In this document: piece by piece, positions 1 through 14,299 of the stretch
How positions within the stretch are numbered: position 1 is the first letter of the stretch
How the letters are laid out: every line of letters begins with the position of its first letter
Origin: a virus
Lineage: Duplodnaviria > Caudoviricetes
DNA: 64,000 nt
Virus record (IMG/VR): IMGVR_UViG_3300031994_000095
Location: 1,584 to 65,583 of that record
Direction: 5' to 3' (one strand)
The notes under the pieces: model-generated
Database searches by the model: none
Told to the model about the DNA's origin: nothing
What the model saw: only the letters and a program-made list of their open reading frames with translations
Made by a program: the position numbers and the translations under genes

Positions 1-736
1 CGATGCTGTCCTCGACCTCCTTGACTTGCGCTTGGAGGTTAGCAAGCAATGCAACCGACTCACCGAGTCCTATGGAGAGGAATCCCTCGACAACGTTGGC
101 AACCTCGTGTTCGGCGGGGTTAGCATCGGGAGTCCAGATGCTTCCCTCCTTCTCGCAGAGTAAGATCGCGTCAACGGTGTCCTTGCTCATCGGCTCAATC
201 TCCACGAGCTTCCCACAAGTGTCTTTCAAGATGTCATCCTTGTTGCCCTTCTTGATGGGTAGGCAATAACACTTGCGAACCTTGATTTCGGGGTTGATAG
301 CCTCGAAGAACACTTTATAGAAGCCAAGCTGAGAGGCGAGAGCGTCCTTGTGGACGGACGATGTGCGCTTCATATCTATGAGGTCCACGGTGTTCTCGTC
401 AACCTTTGCAACGAGGTCGATGGATGATGCGACCGTCTCAAAGTCGGAGACAAGGTACTCGGTGGCGATGATGTCCAATCCGAGTTTCTTGAACGACTTG
501 ATGAGTGGTGTCTCGGGGATGGGGAGTCCATCGCAATAGGCTTCGATAGCCTTGTGTGCTTGTGTCCCGAGGTCCGCTGCGTGGTCAAGCACCTCCTGGT
601 CAACCATCGTGTAGTTGGGCGAAAGATTTTGCTTTCGCATCAGTTCCGTGCACCCGATAAGCATCTTCTCACCGTCGAGAATATATGAATGGGTGAGAGG
701 GTAAAATACGACCCTGGTAACTTTATTTAACTCCAT
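1..736 (-). CDS. PD-(D/E)XK (RecB/Cas4-like) exonuclease, 3'-truncated by the window edge
   Basis: Manual translation from ATG 736 (TAATG overlap with the MTase stop): MELNKVTRVVFYPLTHSYILDG...LGTQAHKAIE...IIATEYLVSD...SSIDL...DLIDMKRT...QLGFY. H..E, D, DxK and QL.xY motifs. Absent from the ORF track because it has no stop in the window. Confidence 0.75.
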   Translation of the reverse strand, partial: MELNKVTRVVFYPLTHSYILDGEKMLIGCTELMRKQNLSPNYTMVDQEVLDHAADLGTQAHKAIEAYCDGLPIPETPLIKSFKKLGLDIIATEYLVSDFETVASSIDLVAKVDENTVDLIDMKRTSSVHKDALASQLGFYKVFFEAINPEIKVRKCYCLPIKKGNKDDILKDTCGKLVEIEPMSKDTVDAILLCEKEGSIWTPDANPAEHEVANVVEGFLSIGLGESVALLANLQAQVKEVEDSI

Positions 737-1456
737 TAGAATAGTGTGTATTGGGATTGTTGGATGCCAATTCTTTGATTGGCATAGTCAACGTAGTTTT
801 GGGATATTTCAGTACCGATGAAATCTCGGCGTTCCTTTATAGCGGCAATCGCAGTTGTGCCACTCCCCATAAAAGGGTCATAGACAAGTCCACCTTCGGG
901 GCAAGAGGCTAAAATTGCCATCCTTGCCAACTGCAAAGGGAACGGTGCGGGGTGCTTATTCTCTTGGATATGCGATATGTCCCACACATCCCCCCATCTT
1001 GCCATCTCTCCATTGAAATAAGGCTTACCTTTGGTGAATACAAAGATTTCCTCGTGGCGTGGATAAAACTTATCTTTTGCGACATCTGGGGACGACGGAT
1101 ACTTCCATACAATGTGTTGTCTTAAAGGAAGAGGACAAAGGTCAATAACCCAAAAGGGGTGACGATAAGTATGGTCTCGCCATTGTCCTTTGTGATTCCA
1201 ATAAAGTGTGCCACCTTCTTTTAGGGAATAGGCGCACAGTTCAAGGATTTTCTTTATCCAATCCCTATAAGCATCATCGGGCATATCATCAGAGTATGTG
1301 TCATAACTCCTCGCCCTTCCGTTACGGTTGAATCCGCCAAAGTTGTATGGAGGCGAGGTAACTATCATATCACAAAATCCGCCCCCCCCCGTTTTGCATA
1401 AACTCTTGACAATCAGCCAAGTATATCTTGTTCCTTTCAAGACTTGATGTTGTCAT
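736..1456 (-). CDS. N4-cytosine/N6-adenine DNA methyltransferase (beta class), frameshifted at a G9 tract
   Basis: TSPPYN, HPAPFP and DPFMGSGTT motifs. The natural N-terminus MTTSSLERNKIYLADCQEFMQN (ATG 1456) is in another frame and joins the body if the tract at 1382-1390 is G8 or G11. Confidence 0.85.
1382..1390 (-). repeat. Poly-G tract (G9), candidate phase-variation switch
   Basis: C9 on the + strand, inside the 5' part of the MTase. Confidence 0.85.
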
Positions 1457-3823: not shown

Positions 3824-3982
3824 CTACCTTCGCATCTCTTTGTCGCTTTCCGTTTCCGATAGTAGCGCGTTGGCCATAAGGCCACACACGATTACCATAA
3901 GTAACTGGTGCGAGTAACCGAAAAAAAGAGAGACGAAGGCTATTGCGCCAAGGGTGGCGAAGATGTATCCGAGGGTTTTCAT
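3824..3982 (-). CDS. Small membrane protein (52 aa)
   Basis: Manual translation MKTLGYIFATLGAIAFVSLFFGYSHQLLMVIVCGLMANALL..., two hydrophobic segments. ATG overlaps the upstream stop. Confidence 0.6.
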   Translation of the reverse strand: MKTLGYIFATLGAIAFVSLFFGYSHQLLMVIVCGLMANALLSETESDKEMRR

Positions 3983-4206
3983 TTGCGGAATTTTTCGAGA
4001 TCGGACGGGAGGTATCCTGCTATGCCGTTAGCGACTGTCTTCTTGAGTCCCCTTCGGGCATAGTTTCGGATGGATGATTCACAGACGCCGAGGTATTGTG
4101 CCGCTTGCTTGCGATTGAGTGGTATCTCGGCATTTGGCTTGAGTGTCTGGAGGGCGAGTAGTATCGCTTCTCCGATGGTGATGATGCGGTCGAGCCGGTC
4201 TTCCAT
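3979..4206 (-). CDS. HTH DNA-binding protein (excisionase-like)
   Basis: LNRKQAAQYLGVCESSIRNYARRG. Confidence 0.75.
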   Translation of the reverse strand: MEDRLDRIITIGEAILLALQTLKPNAEIPLNRKQAAQYLGVCESSIRNYARRGLKKTVANGIAGYLPSDLEKFRK

Positions 4207-4212
4207 AGGTCA

Positions 4213-4431
4213 TCAGAAGAGTTGTCCGTCTGGAACTCCGTCCTTCAGGAAGAGGTTTTCATAGATGCCGTGGACGAGGGTGTCCACTACGATGGAGTTC
4301 CCAGCGAGTTTGTACTGCTGGGACTCGGAGATGCCGGATGCCTGGATGCGGTCAATCTCTTCATCCTTCACGGCCATCAGTCTAAAACACTCCCTGGCCG
4401 TAAGCTTGCGGATTCTATAAATCTTTGCCAT
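4213..4431 (-). CDS. C5 cytosine methyltransferase C-terminal half (motifs IX-X)
   Basis: RIRKLTARECFRLM and QQYKLAGNSIVV. Confidence 0.88.
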   Translation of the reverse strand: MAKIYRIRKLTARECFRLMAVKDEEIDRIQASGISESQQYKLAGNSIVVDTLVHGIYENLFLKDGVPDGQLF

Positions 4432-5658
4432 ATCGTTGTTATTTTGAATTTCTATTATTTTCCATCCGTTAGTGAAGGCGAGGTTGGCGAATGTCTGCCG
4501 GACTGCTCCGATAATTTGCCCCCCCCCTCAATTCGTGATTGAAGTCATCAAGCAGGACGATCCTCATAGACTATCACCTTTATGCCCCCCCCCTGCTATA
4601 ATGGTCGGAGCGATGTTTCGTGGGTTGATGAACTGGCACTCGGAGATGGATGTCTTCTTGTAGTCATCCAGATGCGTCCTGATATTCCCATTTGGGAGCA
4701 GAGTATAGACGATGTTAAAGTCCTTGCGAGTCCATTTCTTCATATAGCACCCAGTATCCGTAACTTCCGAATGTAGCGGTAATGCCAACAGATATGCCCC
4801 CCCCCCCCTATCTATTTTCGGGACTTTGCCAAGGGAGAATTTCGCGCCCTTGTCCCCGTGGAGATGCCGTCTGCGTTTCTCCTCTTCACTCCGCTCTCTC
4901 GTCAGTATCTCGGTAGTCAGATATTTCATAGATTTCTAATACACCGGTATTAGGATAATAGCCGCCCCCCCCGTGAGGCTTTTCAAGCAAGCCCCATCAT
5001 ACCTCGCACGGATTGTGAAGGCGCATCCGTCAAATGTCACATTTATCGGTATCGTCCTCTTCATAGGTTATCACGATGACACCCGTTGCTCCCCAAGTGC
5101 CAGTCCGCAGGAAATTAGCAAAACTCGTCTTCCAATATTGAGCCTTGATTCCCCTTGCTGCGCCATTGGGTGCCGGGTTAAGCGGGATCACTTTCGGTAA
5201 CTCCTTCATATTCATAGCGGTAAATCTCTCCCGATGCGGTGAGGGTGGGACAAATCTCGCCCCCCCTATGACCCTTCCGCGCCTTGTGAGCGAGGATGTG
5301 TATGTGCCGTCGAAAACACCGCCAAGGGACACTTCGATGTAACCTTTTTCAGTCGCTTGGCGAATCCTTAATTTCTGTGACATACCAATAGTTGCCGTGG
5401 CTGATTCTCGTGTGTATCGTCCCCGCAATCTCAAGGTTGACCGAGGAGTTGTAGATGTCTATCCAGACCCCCCCCCCTAATCGGAATCACGCCATCGTCA
5501 AACATCCGCTGGAATGTCGGGACTATCTTCGCCATAGACTAATATGCAACCGAATCCGTAGCCGTGGGTACCGGCCATAATGCTGGGTGCGAGACCGAAG
5601 GTCGAGAAGACCCGCCCCCCCCCATCTCACTCGTCGGAGAGTACGTCCCCAGAGTCAT
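4432..5658 (-). other. Array of 8 overlapping mini-ORFs resembling C5-MTase variable-region (TRD) modules, 7 with central poly-G tracts
   Basis: ATG starts at 5658, 5535, 5383, 5215, 5064, 4929, 4743 and 4567. Tracts: 5615-5623 G9, 5468-5477 G10, 5260-5266 G7, 4965-4972 G8, 4797-4808 G12, 4585-4593 G9, 4519-4527 G9. A one-base correction gives coherent modules such as IRQATEKGYIEV...RRGRVIGGGEICPTLTA. Confidence 0.8.
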
Positions 5659-6367
5659 CACCCTCAAGGAGTCTTTTCTTGTCATCGTCAAGGTTCTCGA
5701 TGAACTTGTTGACCCTCTCCTGGTCGAGATAGTATTTCTCATCCACCTTGTCCTCCAGCATATCCTTGAGCCGGAGTTTCAGCTCGAAAGGTTCGCCGAA
5801 AGTGAAACTGCGGTCATCATCGCGGATGGACACCACGAAGATACGCTCTCGGTTTTGGGGGATGCCGTAATCCTTTGCGTTGAGAACCTTGCAGTAGTTG
5901 GAGTAGCCGTAGGAGGCAAGCTCCTGTTCCCATTTATGAAAGAGAGGAAGGAACTTGTTGCTTACCAAGGCCTTTACGTTTTCCATCATCAAGTACTTTG
6001 GTCTCTTTGCAAGGACGGCTTTGCGAACCTCCCATAAGAGCGAAGAGCGAGTGCCAGAACCTTCAATTCCTCCTGCTTGCTTACCGGCGTTAGAAAAGTC
6101 TTGGCAAGGGCTGGAGTAGGTCATAAAGTCAAAGTCCGGCACTTCATCCCAATTTATCTTGGAGATGTCTCCGTAGTTGAGGTCTGCGGCTTCGGGGAAG
6201 AGAGCATTGTGCGCCTTGATTGCGTAAGGGTCAATCTCGCTCCATCCTACAATCTTGTAGTCGAAGTCGGGGTTGATTTCCTTGAGACGCTCGAAGGCGA
6301 GAGCCTGGCTGTCGTATCCCGCGAAACCGAAAAAGCATCGAAGCGGATTTTCTTTCGTGTACATCAT
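5627..6367 (-). CDS. C5 cytosine methyltransferase N-terminal half (motifs I-VIII)
   Basis: FAGYDSQ, SPCQDFS (catalytic PC), MENV and PQNRERIF. Start set at the ATGA overlap at 6367. Confidence 0.9.
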   Translation of the reverse strand: MMYTKENPLRCFFGFAGYDSQALAFERLKEINPDFDYKIVGWSEIDPYAIKAHNALFPEAADLNYGDISKINWDEVPDFDFMTYSSPCQDFSNAGKQAGGIEGSGTRSSLLWEVRKAVLAKRPKYLMMENVKALVSNKFLPLFHKWEQELASYGYSNYCKVLNAKDYGIPQNRERIFVVSIRDDDRSFTFGEPFELKLRLKDMLEDKVDEKYYLDQERVNKFIENLDDDKKRLLEGDDSGDVLSDE

Positions 6368-6597
6368 CTTGCTTCGGTTGCTACAGTGACATAGATAGGA
6401 CTCTCGGAGGGTCTGGACTTGACCGTGATGCGGAAGTCCTTGTTCTCGCGGAGATTGTACTGATGGGCGGCGGAGCGGATCGTCTCGACCTCCTTGTAGT
6501 CCTTTGCAGGGAAAGTGCACTCGTCACCGAGGACAAACCCGGAGAAGAACTCCCGCCACTTGCGGGTCTCGCCGCTGATTAAATCGAATCGAATCAT
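6364..6597 (-). CDS. Hypothetical protein
   Basis: 77-aa ORF coupled to the MTase start. Confidence 0.65.
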   Translation of the reverse strand: MIRFDLISGETRKWREFFSGFVLGDECTFPAKDYKEVETIRSAAHQYNLRENKDFRITVKSRPSESPIYVTVATEAR

Positions 6598-9870: not shown

Positions 9871-11034
9871 CTACTTGAAAAACTTGACTCGACCAAAAAT
9901 ATCTTCCACATCCCTCTCGCTCTTCCGCAAATACTTGAGCAGACTCGCCAAGTTCTTGTGACCGCTAACCACCATTATCTGACGCATCGGCACTCCTTCC
10001 TGATCGAGCAATGTACACAGAGTCCTCCGGCAAGTGTGGCTCGACACCATCTTCCATTTCGGCACTCGCTTCTGCACATACCCCTCGCCCTTCGACTCCC
10101 GCACCTCGACCATATCGTTGATCCCTGCCTTCATACACACGGTCTTGACCTCTCTGTTGAACACCACCTGGCCGACCTCTGGGGCTTTCCCTCCGTTGCG
10201 CCTCAATGCCGTCTTCAGCCGTGGGGACAACGGCAGCACAACCCTCTCGCCGGTCTTCCGCTGGATGTAACGGAACTTCCCGTCAACGATGTTGTCAAGG
10301 GTGAAGGTGGAGAAGTCCTCGAACCTCGCGCCGGTGTAACACCCGATGATGAGGAGGTCGCGCACCATCTTCTCCATCCCGTCCGTCAGTTCCAAGTTCC
10401 ATAACTTGTCAAGCTCCGTCTTGGTGAGGTACACGGAGTCGGTATCATTGGCTGGCTTCCTGAACTCGCGGAACTCCTCATTGGAATGGTACTTGAGTTT
10501 CAAGCCCTCCATCATCACCGCCTTGACCTTTGCGATGACGCTCCCTTGGTAGTTCTTGGAGTATTTCTCCGCGTTCATCCTCTCGACCAGACGGAAGTAC
10601 CACGCGGAGTCGATGCCGTCCCAGCCCGCAGATGTACCCATCAGACGGACGAGAAGGTTGTAGGTGTTGCGCCGTTGTCTCTTGGCGGGATTGTCCTTCG
10701 ATGCCCAATCATCGAAATATTGCCAAAATGAGGGGCGTTTCTTGGCATTATAGGCTGGAAGTGGGGTCTCGCTCCACTTGCCGTCCTTAACCCTCGCCAA
10801 AGCCTCGGAAATGGCTTTCTCGGACGAGAACTCGTCAAGGCAGGATTCGAGACCGATGCGGATGAGACGCAGGGCATTGTCCTTGGAGTATTCGCCCGTG
10901 CGCTTGCCGTTCCAATTCTTCGTCTTGGTGGTGATGCCAACGCTCTTCCTCCAGACCTTCCCGCGATGGGTGATGACCACACGGATCGGGGACTCCTCCC
11001 TGGAGGGGAAGACCAAATTGTAGTAGATGTTCAT
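9871..11034 (-). CDS. int: Tyrosine integrase
   Basis: Arm-binding N-terminus; YTGARFED (R), SHTCRR (HxxR), SGHK and KY. Confidence 0.92.
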   Translation of the reverse strand: MNIYYNLVFPSREESPIRVVITHRGKVWRKSVGITTKTKNWNGKRTGEYSKDNALRLIRIGLESCLDEFSSEKAISEALARVKDGKWSETPLPAYNAKKRPSFWQYFDDWASKDNPAKRQRRNTYNLLVRLMGTSAGWDGIDSAWYFRLVERMNAEKYSKNYQGSVIAKVKAVMMEGLKLKYHSNEEFREFRKPANDTDSVYLTKTELDKLWNLELTDGMEKMVRDLLIIGCYTGARFEDFSTFTLDNIVDGKFRYIQRKTGERVVLPLSPRLKTALRRNGGKAPEVGQVVFNREVKTVCMKAGINDMVEVRESKGEGYVQKRVPKWKMVSSHTCRRTLCTLLDQEGVPMRQIMVVSGHKNLASLLKYLRKSERDVEDIFGRVKFFK

Positions 11035-13387: not shown

Positions 13388-14299
13388 TTATCTGAAAAGT
13401 GCCAGCGATTTTTCGTTCAATTTGACCTCACGGCGGCAAACATACCTCGAAGTCATAGCCGTTCCCGTGTGACCGAGAATATCTCGTATGTCCGTCAGGG
13501 GTGTGCCGTTCGCGCTCAAGTTCGTGGCGACACTGATTCGTGCCGAGTGCGAGGAGATGAATTTCCACTTCGGCCCTACCTCGTCCTTGCCACCCTTATG
13601 CACCTTGACTTGCTCGTCGATACCGGCACGCTTGCACAGTCGGCGTATCGTCTTGTTGAAGGTCGCAGTGTCCACCACCTTGCCGTTCGTTCGGAGCCAG
13701 CGCAACCGCGCCACCGTCCTGTTCGAGCAAGGGATTGATGCCGTTATGCCCGTTTTCTTCGACGTGTAGGTCAAGGTCGTGCCGTCCACGTTCTCCTCGG
13801 TCAGTTCGCGGATGTCGCTCAACCTCGCCCCCGTTTTCGTTCCGACAAGAAACTCGTTCAGCACGATTCGTTCGACAGTCGTTCGGGTGGGTACTCGTTC
13901 GAGTCGTTCGAGTTCTGATTCGTTCAGGTAGGTTTTCACGGGTGCTTCCCCTTTGAGTCGGAGGATGGTGGCGTAGTCCTTGCACGGGATCACCCCTTCG
14001 TCCTCGTATCTCCTGAGTAACGCAACCAGGGATGCCGCCACGGTCTTAGCGGAGGATGGGGCCAGGGACTGCCGGAGCTCGTCGCGGAGATTCATAACCC
14101 CGGCCCGTGTCAAGTCCGAAAAGTCCCGTATCTTGGCGTTACGGAGGTGTTTTGATATGGTGGCCGCCTGGAGCCCTGCGTGCTTCTGTACGGCCTCAAA
14201 AATCGTATCCATAGGCATTGTTAATTCATCCACCCGTTGCGATTCTCCCAAGCCTTGACGGACTTGATAGCTGCCGTCCTTGTTAGGCCGTTCTCGCAT
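13388..14299 (-). CDS. Second tyrosine recombinase (no arm domain)
   Basis: TGARLSD, SHSAR, ILGH and RY catalytic residues. The true start may be ~30 codons downstream. Confidence 0.88.
   Translation of the reverse strand: MRERPNKDGSYQVRQGLGESQRVDELTMPMDTIFEAVQKHAGLQAATISKHLRNAKIRDFSDLTRAGVMNLRDELRQSLAPSSAKTVAASLVALLRRYEDEGVIPCKDYATILRLKGEAPVKTYLNESELERLERVPTRTTVERIVLNEFLVGTKTGARLSDIRELTEENVDGTTLTYTSKKTGITASIPCSNRTVARLRWLRTNGKVVDTATFNKTIRRLCKRAGIDEQVKVHKGGKDEVGPKWKFISSHSARISVATNLSANGTPLTDIRDILGHTGTAMTSRYVCRREVKLNEKSLALFR

Follow-up and report, generated by a model that had tools for sequence, protein, structure and literature searches.

Methylases are a main route by which phages escape restriction, but they are thought of as fixed traits. 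Changes in a poly-G run within a Type I hsdS gene of Neisseria gonorrhoeae alter specificity. The subject here is a locus in a window of 64,000 bases, taken from the 65,583 bases of IMG/VR record IMGVR_UViG_3300031994_000095 (rated complete by CheckV), which is predicted to encode a phage C5 cytosine methyltransferase in pieces, with an array of small target-recognition domains (TRDs) lying between the two halves of its core. The closest described systems are as follows. The temperate phages of Bacillus carry multispecific C5-methyltransferases, studied in the Trautner laboratory (M.SPRI, M.Phi3TI, M.Rho11sI and M.H2I), in which many TRDs serve one core (PMC12707154). Natural split C5-methylases also exist, and fragments complement each other if they are broken within the variable region; this is where M.AquI is broken, while in M.EcoHK31I motif IX alone comes from a small polypeptide (PMC3404938). 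Phasevarions comprise Type III mod genes and Type I methyltransferases that contain simple-sequence repeats (PMC12707154).

The array resembles the Bacillus phage enzymes in being phage-borne and in having several short tandem TRDs between motifs VIII and IX, presumably directed against many restriction systems. It differs in its split core, overlapping TRD cistrons and hypermutable runs, whereas the Bacillus enzymes, as far as the account cited describes them, are single polypeptides with no known switch; their form is that of distant single-chain relatives of the array, which have variable regions of up to about 1.1 kilobases (kb). Like M.AquI and M.EcoHK31I, the enzyme is in separate polypeptides, but those enzymes are described as two fixed parts with one specificity, while the array may have three kinds of part, alternative TRDs, and switches. 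With phasevarions it would share a homopolymer within coding sequence that changes length by slipped-strand mispairing and changes methylation. Phasevarions are however cellular genes in which one repeat switches the whole enzyme, whereas the phage array has one repeat per module, for which independent switching is proposed. Type I HsdS provides a functional analogy only: recognition belongs to a separate subunit that can be exchanged and that recombines, while the catalytic partner it serves stays constant, but the fold and the chemistry (N6-adenine) are unrelated, and there is one HsdS per complex. Every ingredient of the array is known, but the combination was not found described; no account of run-gated or cistron-split multi-TRD phage methylases was found in the available parts of the literature searched, including a 2025 restriction-modification review.

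The core of the enzyme is split. The N-terminal half, here called alpha, has 246 residues and is encoded at 6367..5627 on the minus strand, as is the whole locus. It matches positions 7–215 of PF00145 (1.4e-50, 173 bits), contains motifs I–VIII, with SPCQDFS and ENV visible in the translation, and ends in a TGA stop at 5629–5627. Motifs IX–X follow downstream of the variable region, in a piece here called beta, of 72 residues counted from a conserved internal methionine (MAKIY...; 4431..4213), which matches PF00145 positions 273–315. The C-terminal half of a relative (P0007) aligns to the structure of M.MpeI (4dkj) through motifs IX–X. An earlier note on this DNA, made from the letters alone, had proposed that motifs I–VIII end in a stop and that motifs IX–X start separately; the PF00145 matches bear this out, and its coordinates proved to be exact. 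For comparison, relatives of alpha were collected from IMG/VR, where 539 were confirmed; the best 80 loci were fetched, giving 81 arrays with that of the window (related loci are denoted L and related proteins P). The stop at the end of alpha is kept across the relatives from phages of Bacteroidia, including one in a complete Segatella copri genome, and the split can be regarded as a real, conserved feature. It is of the M.AquI type, with motifs I–VIII and IX–X on separate polypeptides and the break in the variable region.

Between the stop after motif VIII and the start of motif IX there are eight TRD-like mini-cistrons, M1 to M8, which were defined by three-frame translation of the minus strand and tracing of open reading frames (ORFs). 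A HMMER search with the ORF at 5383..5030 (the front of M3 together with M4) found 240 relatives, mostly predicted mini-proteins of 47–140 residues. Ten longer relatives were scanned with Pfam, and all ten match PF00145, with the module-matching stretch located between motifs VIII and IX. The relatives include full-length enzymes (P0078, P0094 and P0140) and C-terminal halves with four to about eight tandem TRDs in a single ORF (P0004, P0022, P0091 and P0110). Pfam gave no match to single modules, as expected for TRDs. In P0007, the PTLTA-type motif, the strand that follows it and motif IX align to the M.MpeI structure; since this segment lies just before motif IX of M.MpeI, the end of a module corresponds to the natural end of a TRD. 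The homologues in intact PF00145 proteins and the M.MpeI alignment uphold the view of the earlier note that the modules are predicted TRDs. Eight of them in tandem between motifs VIII and IX, with homologues in P0004, P0022, P0078, P0091 and P0110, is the arrangement of the SPR-type enzymes, but the TRDs and both motif blocks are not in one polypeptide here: a stop follows motif VIII, and the modules have their own ATG and stop. Public protein sets contain many array fragments of 47–140 residues, gene callers having scattered the loci into small ORFs.

Seven of the eight modules contain a run of 7 to 12 G residues on the coding strand, and in each of these the front and the back of the module lie in different frames across the run. 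The frame is broken only at the runs, all N-terminal and C-terminal parts being otherwise open, and a homopolymer of about seven or more within coding sequence therefore sets the reading frame at seven places. M1 (5498..5626) begins at an ATG at 5626 directly before its G9 run (5623–5615), or possibly at a second in-frame ATG at 5685, and would be in frame (ON) at G10 or G7. Its C-terminal part is in the frame of alpha with only the TGA between them, and is 80–88% identical in L007, L013 and L014, of which the L014 copy is uninterrupted and starts at the equivalent methionine. M2 (5349..5535; G10 at 5477–5468) would be ON at G9, and its C-terminal part is 75–84% identical in L004, L009, L017 and L023. 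M3 (5178..5383; G7 at 5266–5260, ON at G8) is a TRD of the classical ...RRGRV / PTLTA type, whose N-terminal part has 47 tblastn matches in the fetched loci; it is also found in the VIII–IX region of intact PF00145 proteins, and as a free cistron with no run in L014. M4 (5030..5215), the sole module without a run, is a complete cistron of 61 residues, 91% identical to a predicted protein of 56 residues (P0001) and with many further mini-ORF relatives. M5 (4886..5064; G8 at 4972–4965, ON at G9) belongs to a family of 15 members with runs from G7 to G12 at the orthologous site. M6 (4715..4929; G12 at 4808–4797, ON at G13 or G10) is a hybrid of two families joined at the run. M7 (4548..4743; G9 at 4593–4585, ON at G8) has relatives of its N-terminal part in L023 and L038. 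M8 (4432..4567; G9 at 4527–4519) is ON at G8, in which case it is fused to motifs IX–X; the ON frame is validated by L017, where the module is uninterrupted.

As assembled, all seven runs, that of M1 included, are out of frame (OFF), so that only M4 would be made from the assembled sequence. M4 may set a default specificity. At the assembled lengths the front of M3 reads on into M4 (ORF 5383..5030) and the front of M6 into M7 (ORF 4929..4564). The run positions and lengths, the ON lengths (obtained by frame analysis), the fusion of M8 to motifs IX–X and the two read-on ORFs all agree with the earlier note. Its figure of 2^7 states is too simple, since three frames are possible at every run and certain OFF frames enter the next module. 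Read-on frames as a designed feature of the window were considered and rejected, only two of six alternative frames being open. A single chain through a choice of run lengths was also ruled out, because each next module lies in the +1 frame relative to the previous C-terminal part. An alternative genetic code and read-through of TGA were both rejected: each of the three stop codons is in use, the standard code gives a normal coding density, and the in-frame relation of alpha to M1 is absent in relatives.

The junctions between modules have a common design. At all seven in the window, the next ATG is in the +1 frame inside a tyrosine codon of the last hydrophobic strand of the previous module. 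The earlier note had described this correctly, but had counted the context T-ATG-A at six junctions, where five are found, together with one T-ATG-G and one T-ATG-T. A census of the family was made by counting ATG-initiated ORFs of at least 15 codons that start within the last 20 codons of a module back. Such an ORF is present in the +1 frame at 65 of 89 module backs, as compared to 19 in the +2 control frame, the commonest contexts being TATGA (29) and GATGA (14). The geometry is not fixed: between the junction ATG and the stop of the preceding module there are from −2 to 19 codons, and at four of the window junctions there is a stop 2–3 codons before the next ATG and in the frame of that ATG. 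These features fit a predicted coupling by termination and reinitiation, and not a fixed frameshift site.

The runs vary in length among relatives. One site in S. copri-type prophages is found as G6, G7, G8, G9 and G10 with near-identical flanks, while in other alleles of the same site the run is replaced by interrupted codons (GGT-GGA), which we call locked. L046 differs from L051 and L058 at this site (G7 against G8), although the sequences are 98.7% identical over 2700 nucleotides with a single gap opening. Variation in run length between near-identical genomes is thus seen in relatives of this phage, as the hypermutability proposed in the earlier note would lead one to expect. Uninterrupted alleles are found of the M6 front (L007, L013 and L002), of M8 (L017), of M1 and M3 (L014) and of the terminal module of S. 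copri (L040); because such alleles exist, the ON frames are real, and front and back form one polypeptide. In L006 and L017 poly-G is replaced at the same linker by poly-C (encoding Pro-Pro-Pro), and in L006 the run of one module family is located at a different glycine pair. The kept feature is therefore a homopolymer per module, and not a particular glycine. Poly-C runs in relatives are at position 6667 in L006 (C10), 6897 in L017 (C8), 5467 in L009 (C9), 2107 in L011 (C9) and 4928 in L014 (C8). Others lie in the overlap between the tail of alpha and the first module (position 4711 in L029 and L032, 4692 in L038, 767 in L016), where a run of the right length could join the first TRD to the catalytic head. 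A run can also choose between alternatives rather than simply switch a module off, as two cases seem to show. In L012, alpha reads through to the first run, which selects either a short TRD or, in another frame, a path that bypasses it and enters a second TRD lacking its own ATG; and in the S. copri group, a run of G8 terminates module 1, whereas one of G9 carries the frame on into module 2.

Across the 81 arrays, the distance from alpha to motif IX is 379–2998 nucleotides, containing 0–17 G/C runs, and the order and number of modules vary widely. The most extreme case is L009, whose 3 kb array contains 16 G runs and a single C run. G runs of at least seven number 151 in 85.8 kb of array, compared to nine in 558 kb of flanking sequence (1.76 per kb inside the arrays against 0.016 per kb outside, an enrichment of about 110-fold), and the figures for C runs of at least seven are 22 inside and three outside. 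The earlier note had allowed that the frameshifts might be homopolymer assembly errors, but this enrichment, and the same architecture in dozens of independent assemblies, show that they are not. The split, run-bearing form occurs in metagenome-assembled genomes of Bacteroidia (rumen RUG13467, Alistipes, Bacteroidaceae, Paludibacteraceae and yak-rumen Bacteroidales) and in one goat-colon bin labelled Clostridia, and a split form without runs is found in the complete chromosome of S. copri HDE04. We regard the run-bearing split array, as predicted from these sequences, as a family trait and not as damage or assembly error. More distant relatives (at most 55% identity), mostly labelled Firmicutes, for example Christensenella and Clostridia, are mostly single-chain, with variable regions of up to 1087 nucleotides and no array runs. 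The simplest history would be that of an SPR-like single-chain multispecific ancestor, which in phages of Bacteroidia became split, was divided into cistrons and acquired runs. Loci L095–L125 (Christensenella, Pumilibacter and other Clostridia), single-chain and run-less with variable regions of about 0.8–1.1 kb, probably encode undescribed SPR-like multispecific enzymes with many TRDs. L004 has a G17 run at position 5960, 27 nucleotides from the contig end, which could be either an artefact of two-colour sequencing or an assembly break on a real run.

The internal modules are under purifying selection. In the phages with mini-cistrons, synonymous sites are saturated (proportion of synonymous differences, pS, 0.63–0.87) while the nonsynonymous proportion, pN, is 0.16–0.28; where the ratio of the corresponding rates (dN/dS) could be computed, it is 0.13 for the M5 front and 0.17 for the M2 back. 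Some modules are also found free and intact. The S. copri prophages, including that of the complete HDE04 genome, contain a run-less module of 53 residues that is joined to neither half of the core. Its start lies in the +1 frame at a point 17 codons short of the alpha stop, it has a stop of its own, and the part that does not overlap alpha has a dN/dS of 0.18 across 14 distinct alleles. Similarly, L014 has several complete module cistrons with no run, each with its own junction ATG and stop.

It appears that beta is also separate. A methionine directly before motif IX (MAKIY or MAKHY) is found in all eight loci of a run-rich clade, where the last TRDs that precede it are of at least three kinds, and loci with this methionine average nine runs, as against 0.8 in all other loci. 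None of the six run-bearing loci of this clade has its last module in frame with motifs IX–X. By comparison, the terminal run is in frame in nine of 12 loci of the S. copri group, which do not have the methionine. In L014, the piece containing motifs IX–X is a separate cistron with no TRD and only a nine-residue leader. Taken together, the L014 cistron, the free modules, the conserved methionine and the out-of-frame last modules suggest that beta is produced as an independent polypeptide, with no need of an attached TRD.

On the basis of these observations, we hypothesise that the locus encodes an anti-restriction C5 methylase with an alpha–beta core and free TRD subunits gated by the runs, and we would put the probability of this reading at roughly 0.55. 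The core would consist of alpha (motifs I–VIII) and beta (motifs IX–X), the latter being translated from its own conserved methionine whenever the last module is OFF. The eight short cistrons between them would be translationally coupled, each being one target-recognition module. The G homopolymer in a glycine loop of a module would change length by slipped-strand mispairing during replication, which would flip that module on or off heritably, with no effect on the other modules or on the core. Modules that are ON would dock on the alpha–beta core as separate subunits, each adding one methylated sequence, so that a phage population may hold many methylation patterns. This could serve as a hedge between hosts whose restriction demands methylation and hosts that have methyl-dependent nucleases. 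The runs would double as breakpoints at which hybrid modules such as M6 are created. A TRD deep in a tandem array is tethered only through other TRDs and would therefore have to dock largely non-covalently, which would make loss of the tether a smaller step than it first seems. The fuller version of this model, a three-component C5 methylase with free TRD subunits of 50–70 residues, a combinatorial, heritable and reversible repertoire, and runs that act as joints for hybrids, seems to us to have slightly less than an even chance of being correct.

Several points weigh against this proposal. To our knowledge, all TRDs of the known multispecific C5 enzymes are in one chain, and we know of no C5 enzyme for which a detached TRD subunit is established. 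All run lengths come from metagenome consensus assemblies, and the dN/dS estimates come from short alignments. The methionine before motif IX is confined to one clade and may therefore be simply inherited rather than functional; the effect of clade is inseparable from that of function here, and the independence of beta is to that extent conjectural. Internal runs of relatives are in frame about one third of the time in a crude census (it picks the longest open frames, and miscalled the last module of L009), as unselected sequence would also be. Finally, the seven array runs and a further run in a second methylase gene are all out of frame, which has a chance of about 4% if frames are random.

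The alternative that survives best is that the array is an archive of cassettes, in which only TRDs joined to alpha or beta are active and the internal mini-cistrons are a silent store, moved by deletion or unequal crossing-over between runs, with the frameshifts as by-products. One point in its favour is M6 of the window, which consists of the front of one module family and the back of another, with the breakpoint at the run, as the earlier note had envisaged for such hybrids. Fronts of the M6 type pair with one canonical back family in L002, L006, L007, L009, L013 and L017, while the back of the window M6 belongs to another family, which has its own front in L006, L009 and L017 (near 7043 in L009 and near 6625 in L017). 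This is the one clear case of such a hybrid. The runs with 2–4 flanking bases are also the only repeats common to the modules, no site-specific recombination sites or nucleotide-level module repeats being found in the array besides them; the variability of module order and number would be natural for an archive, and silent cassettes elsewhere are also under purifying selection. However, silent cassettes need no start codons, and yet +1 ATGs are present at most of the junctions; complete free-standing module ORFs are kept in L014 and in the S. copri prophages; in every run-bearing locus of the run-rich clade the last module before beta is itself out of frame, so that the slot supposed to be expressed would usually be empty; and runs of 8–12 nucleotides are poor substrates for homologous recombination. 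We consider a silent archive unlikely, though the most probable of the alternatives.

Next is the idea that expression is recoded in a way that is not heritable: RNA polymerase would slip on the G runs, all modules would be made at a low constitutive level, and it would matter little to a phage which run length it carries. Homopolymers are known to cause transcriptional slippage (PMC6260861), orthologous runs of 7–12 show no preferred frame, and assemblies with every module OFF are common in the run-rich clade, yet the modules are under selection. Set against this, the locked alleles of the same modules indicate that a run is not needed for expression, the in-frame bias of the S. copri terminal run suggests that the frame in the DNA matters, and the +1 design of the junctions is left unexplained. 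This seems to us distinctly improbable, more so than the archive.

Much less credible again is decay or artefact, in which a single-chain multispecific methylase has been broken by frameshifts and homopolymer miscalls. It is true that every run in the contig is out of frame, that the record is a metagenome assembly, and that the G17 run of L004 may be a sequencing artefact. Decay is nevertheless unlikely because the frames are broken at the runs alone; in addition, the architecture recurs in dozens of independent assemblies, the split form with overlapping cistrons and no runs is present in a complete isolate genome (L087), dN/dS is 0.13–0.18, the overlapping start codons are conserved, and a 110-fold enrichment of runs in the array is impossible from random error. 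We regard this explanation as already largely refuted. Programmed +1 ribosomal frameshifting at each junction, to give one long SPR-like polypeptide, can be given hardly any weight either: the next module is always in +1, and the ends of several C-terminal parts (NNU-UGA or NNU-UAA) bear a loose resemblance to the prfB site, but the ATG-to-stop distances follow no fixed geometry, there is no conserved slippery motif, the stops just before the ATG at four junctions are typical of termination and reinitiation, and seven successive shifts would give a negligible yield.

The window encodes a portal, large terminase, major head protein, tape measure, primase-helicase, replication initiator and two tyrosine integrase-like proteins, and on the basis of this gene content the source virus is classed as a temperate tailed phage; it is regarded as a gut phage. 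The integrase-like genes (phrog_1) are at 9871–11034 and 13388–14299, both on the minus strand and 3.5–8 kb upstream of the methylase block; one of them is presumably the phage integrase, and no inverted repeats were found that tie the two to the array. Exact-pattern scans of viral and metagenome contigs found no near-identical copies of this phage, and a DNA search against deposited phage genomes gave only distant methylase matches.

The methylase region (6367..4213) is part of a minus-strand early block that starts upstream with a small ORF (6597..6364). Downstream there is a helix-turn-helix protein (4206..3979), followed in order by a DnaN-like clamp, an ERF recombinase, a small ORF, an N6/N4 methylase and a PD-(D/E)XK nuclease. 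The N6/N4 methylase (736..1456, minus strand; PF01555, 1.1e-40) is the second methylase referred to above. It has a G9 run at 1390–1382, between an N-terminal motif and a DPPY-type motif; a length of G8 or G11 would join the two, and as assembled the gene is open only as a TTG-initiated form that lacks the natural N-terminus. This is the sole G/C run of at least seven in the 64 kb outside the C5 array, so that the earlier observation that such runs are confined to the two methylase loci holds.

With modules that switch independently, a single phage genotype would be able to try out many methylation patterns, and sibling phages could carry different protective patterns. This bears on host range in the Bacteroidia of rumen and gut, including the prophages of S. 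copri, and on the balance that phages have to strike between classical and methyl-dependent restriction. There is also a consequence for annotation, in that these loci are now scattered into dozens of unannotated ORFs of 50–140 residues. If detached TRDs do act in trans, the picture of how C5 methylases recognise DNA would change: the array would be a C5 counterpart of the Type I specificity subunits, and would provide tools for targeted methylation with a natural set of small specificity modules that can be plugged in.

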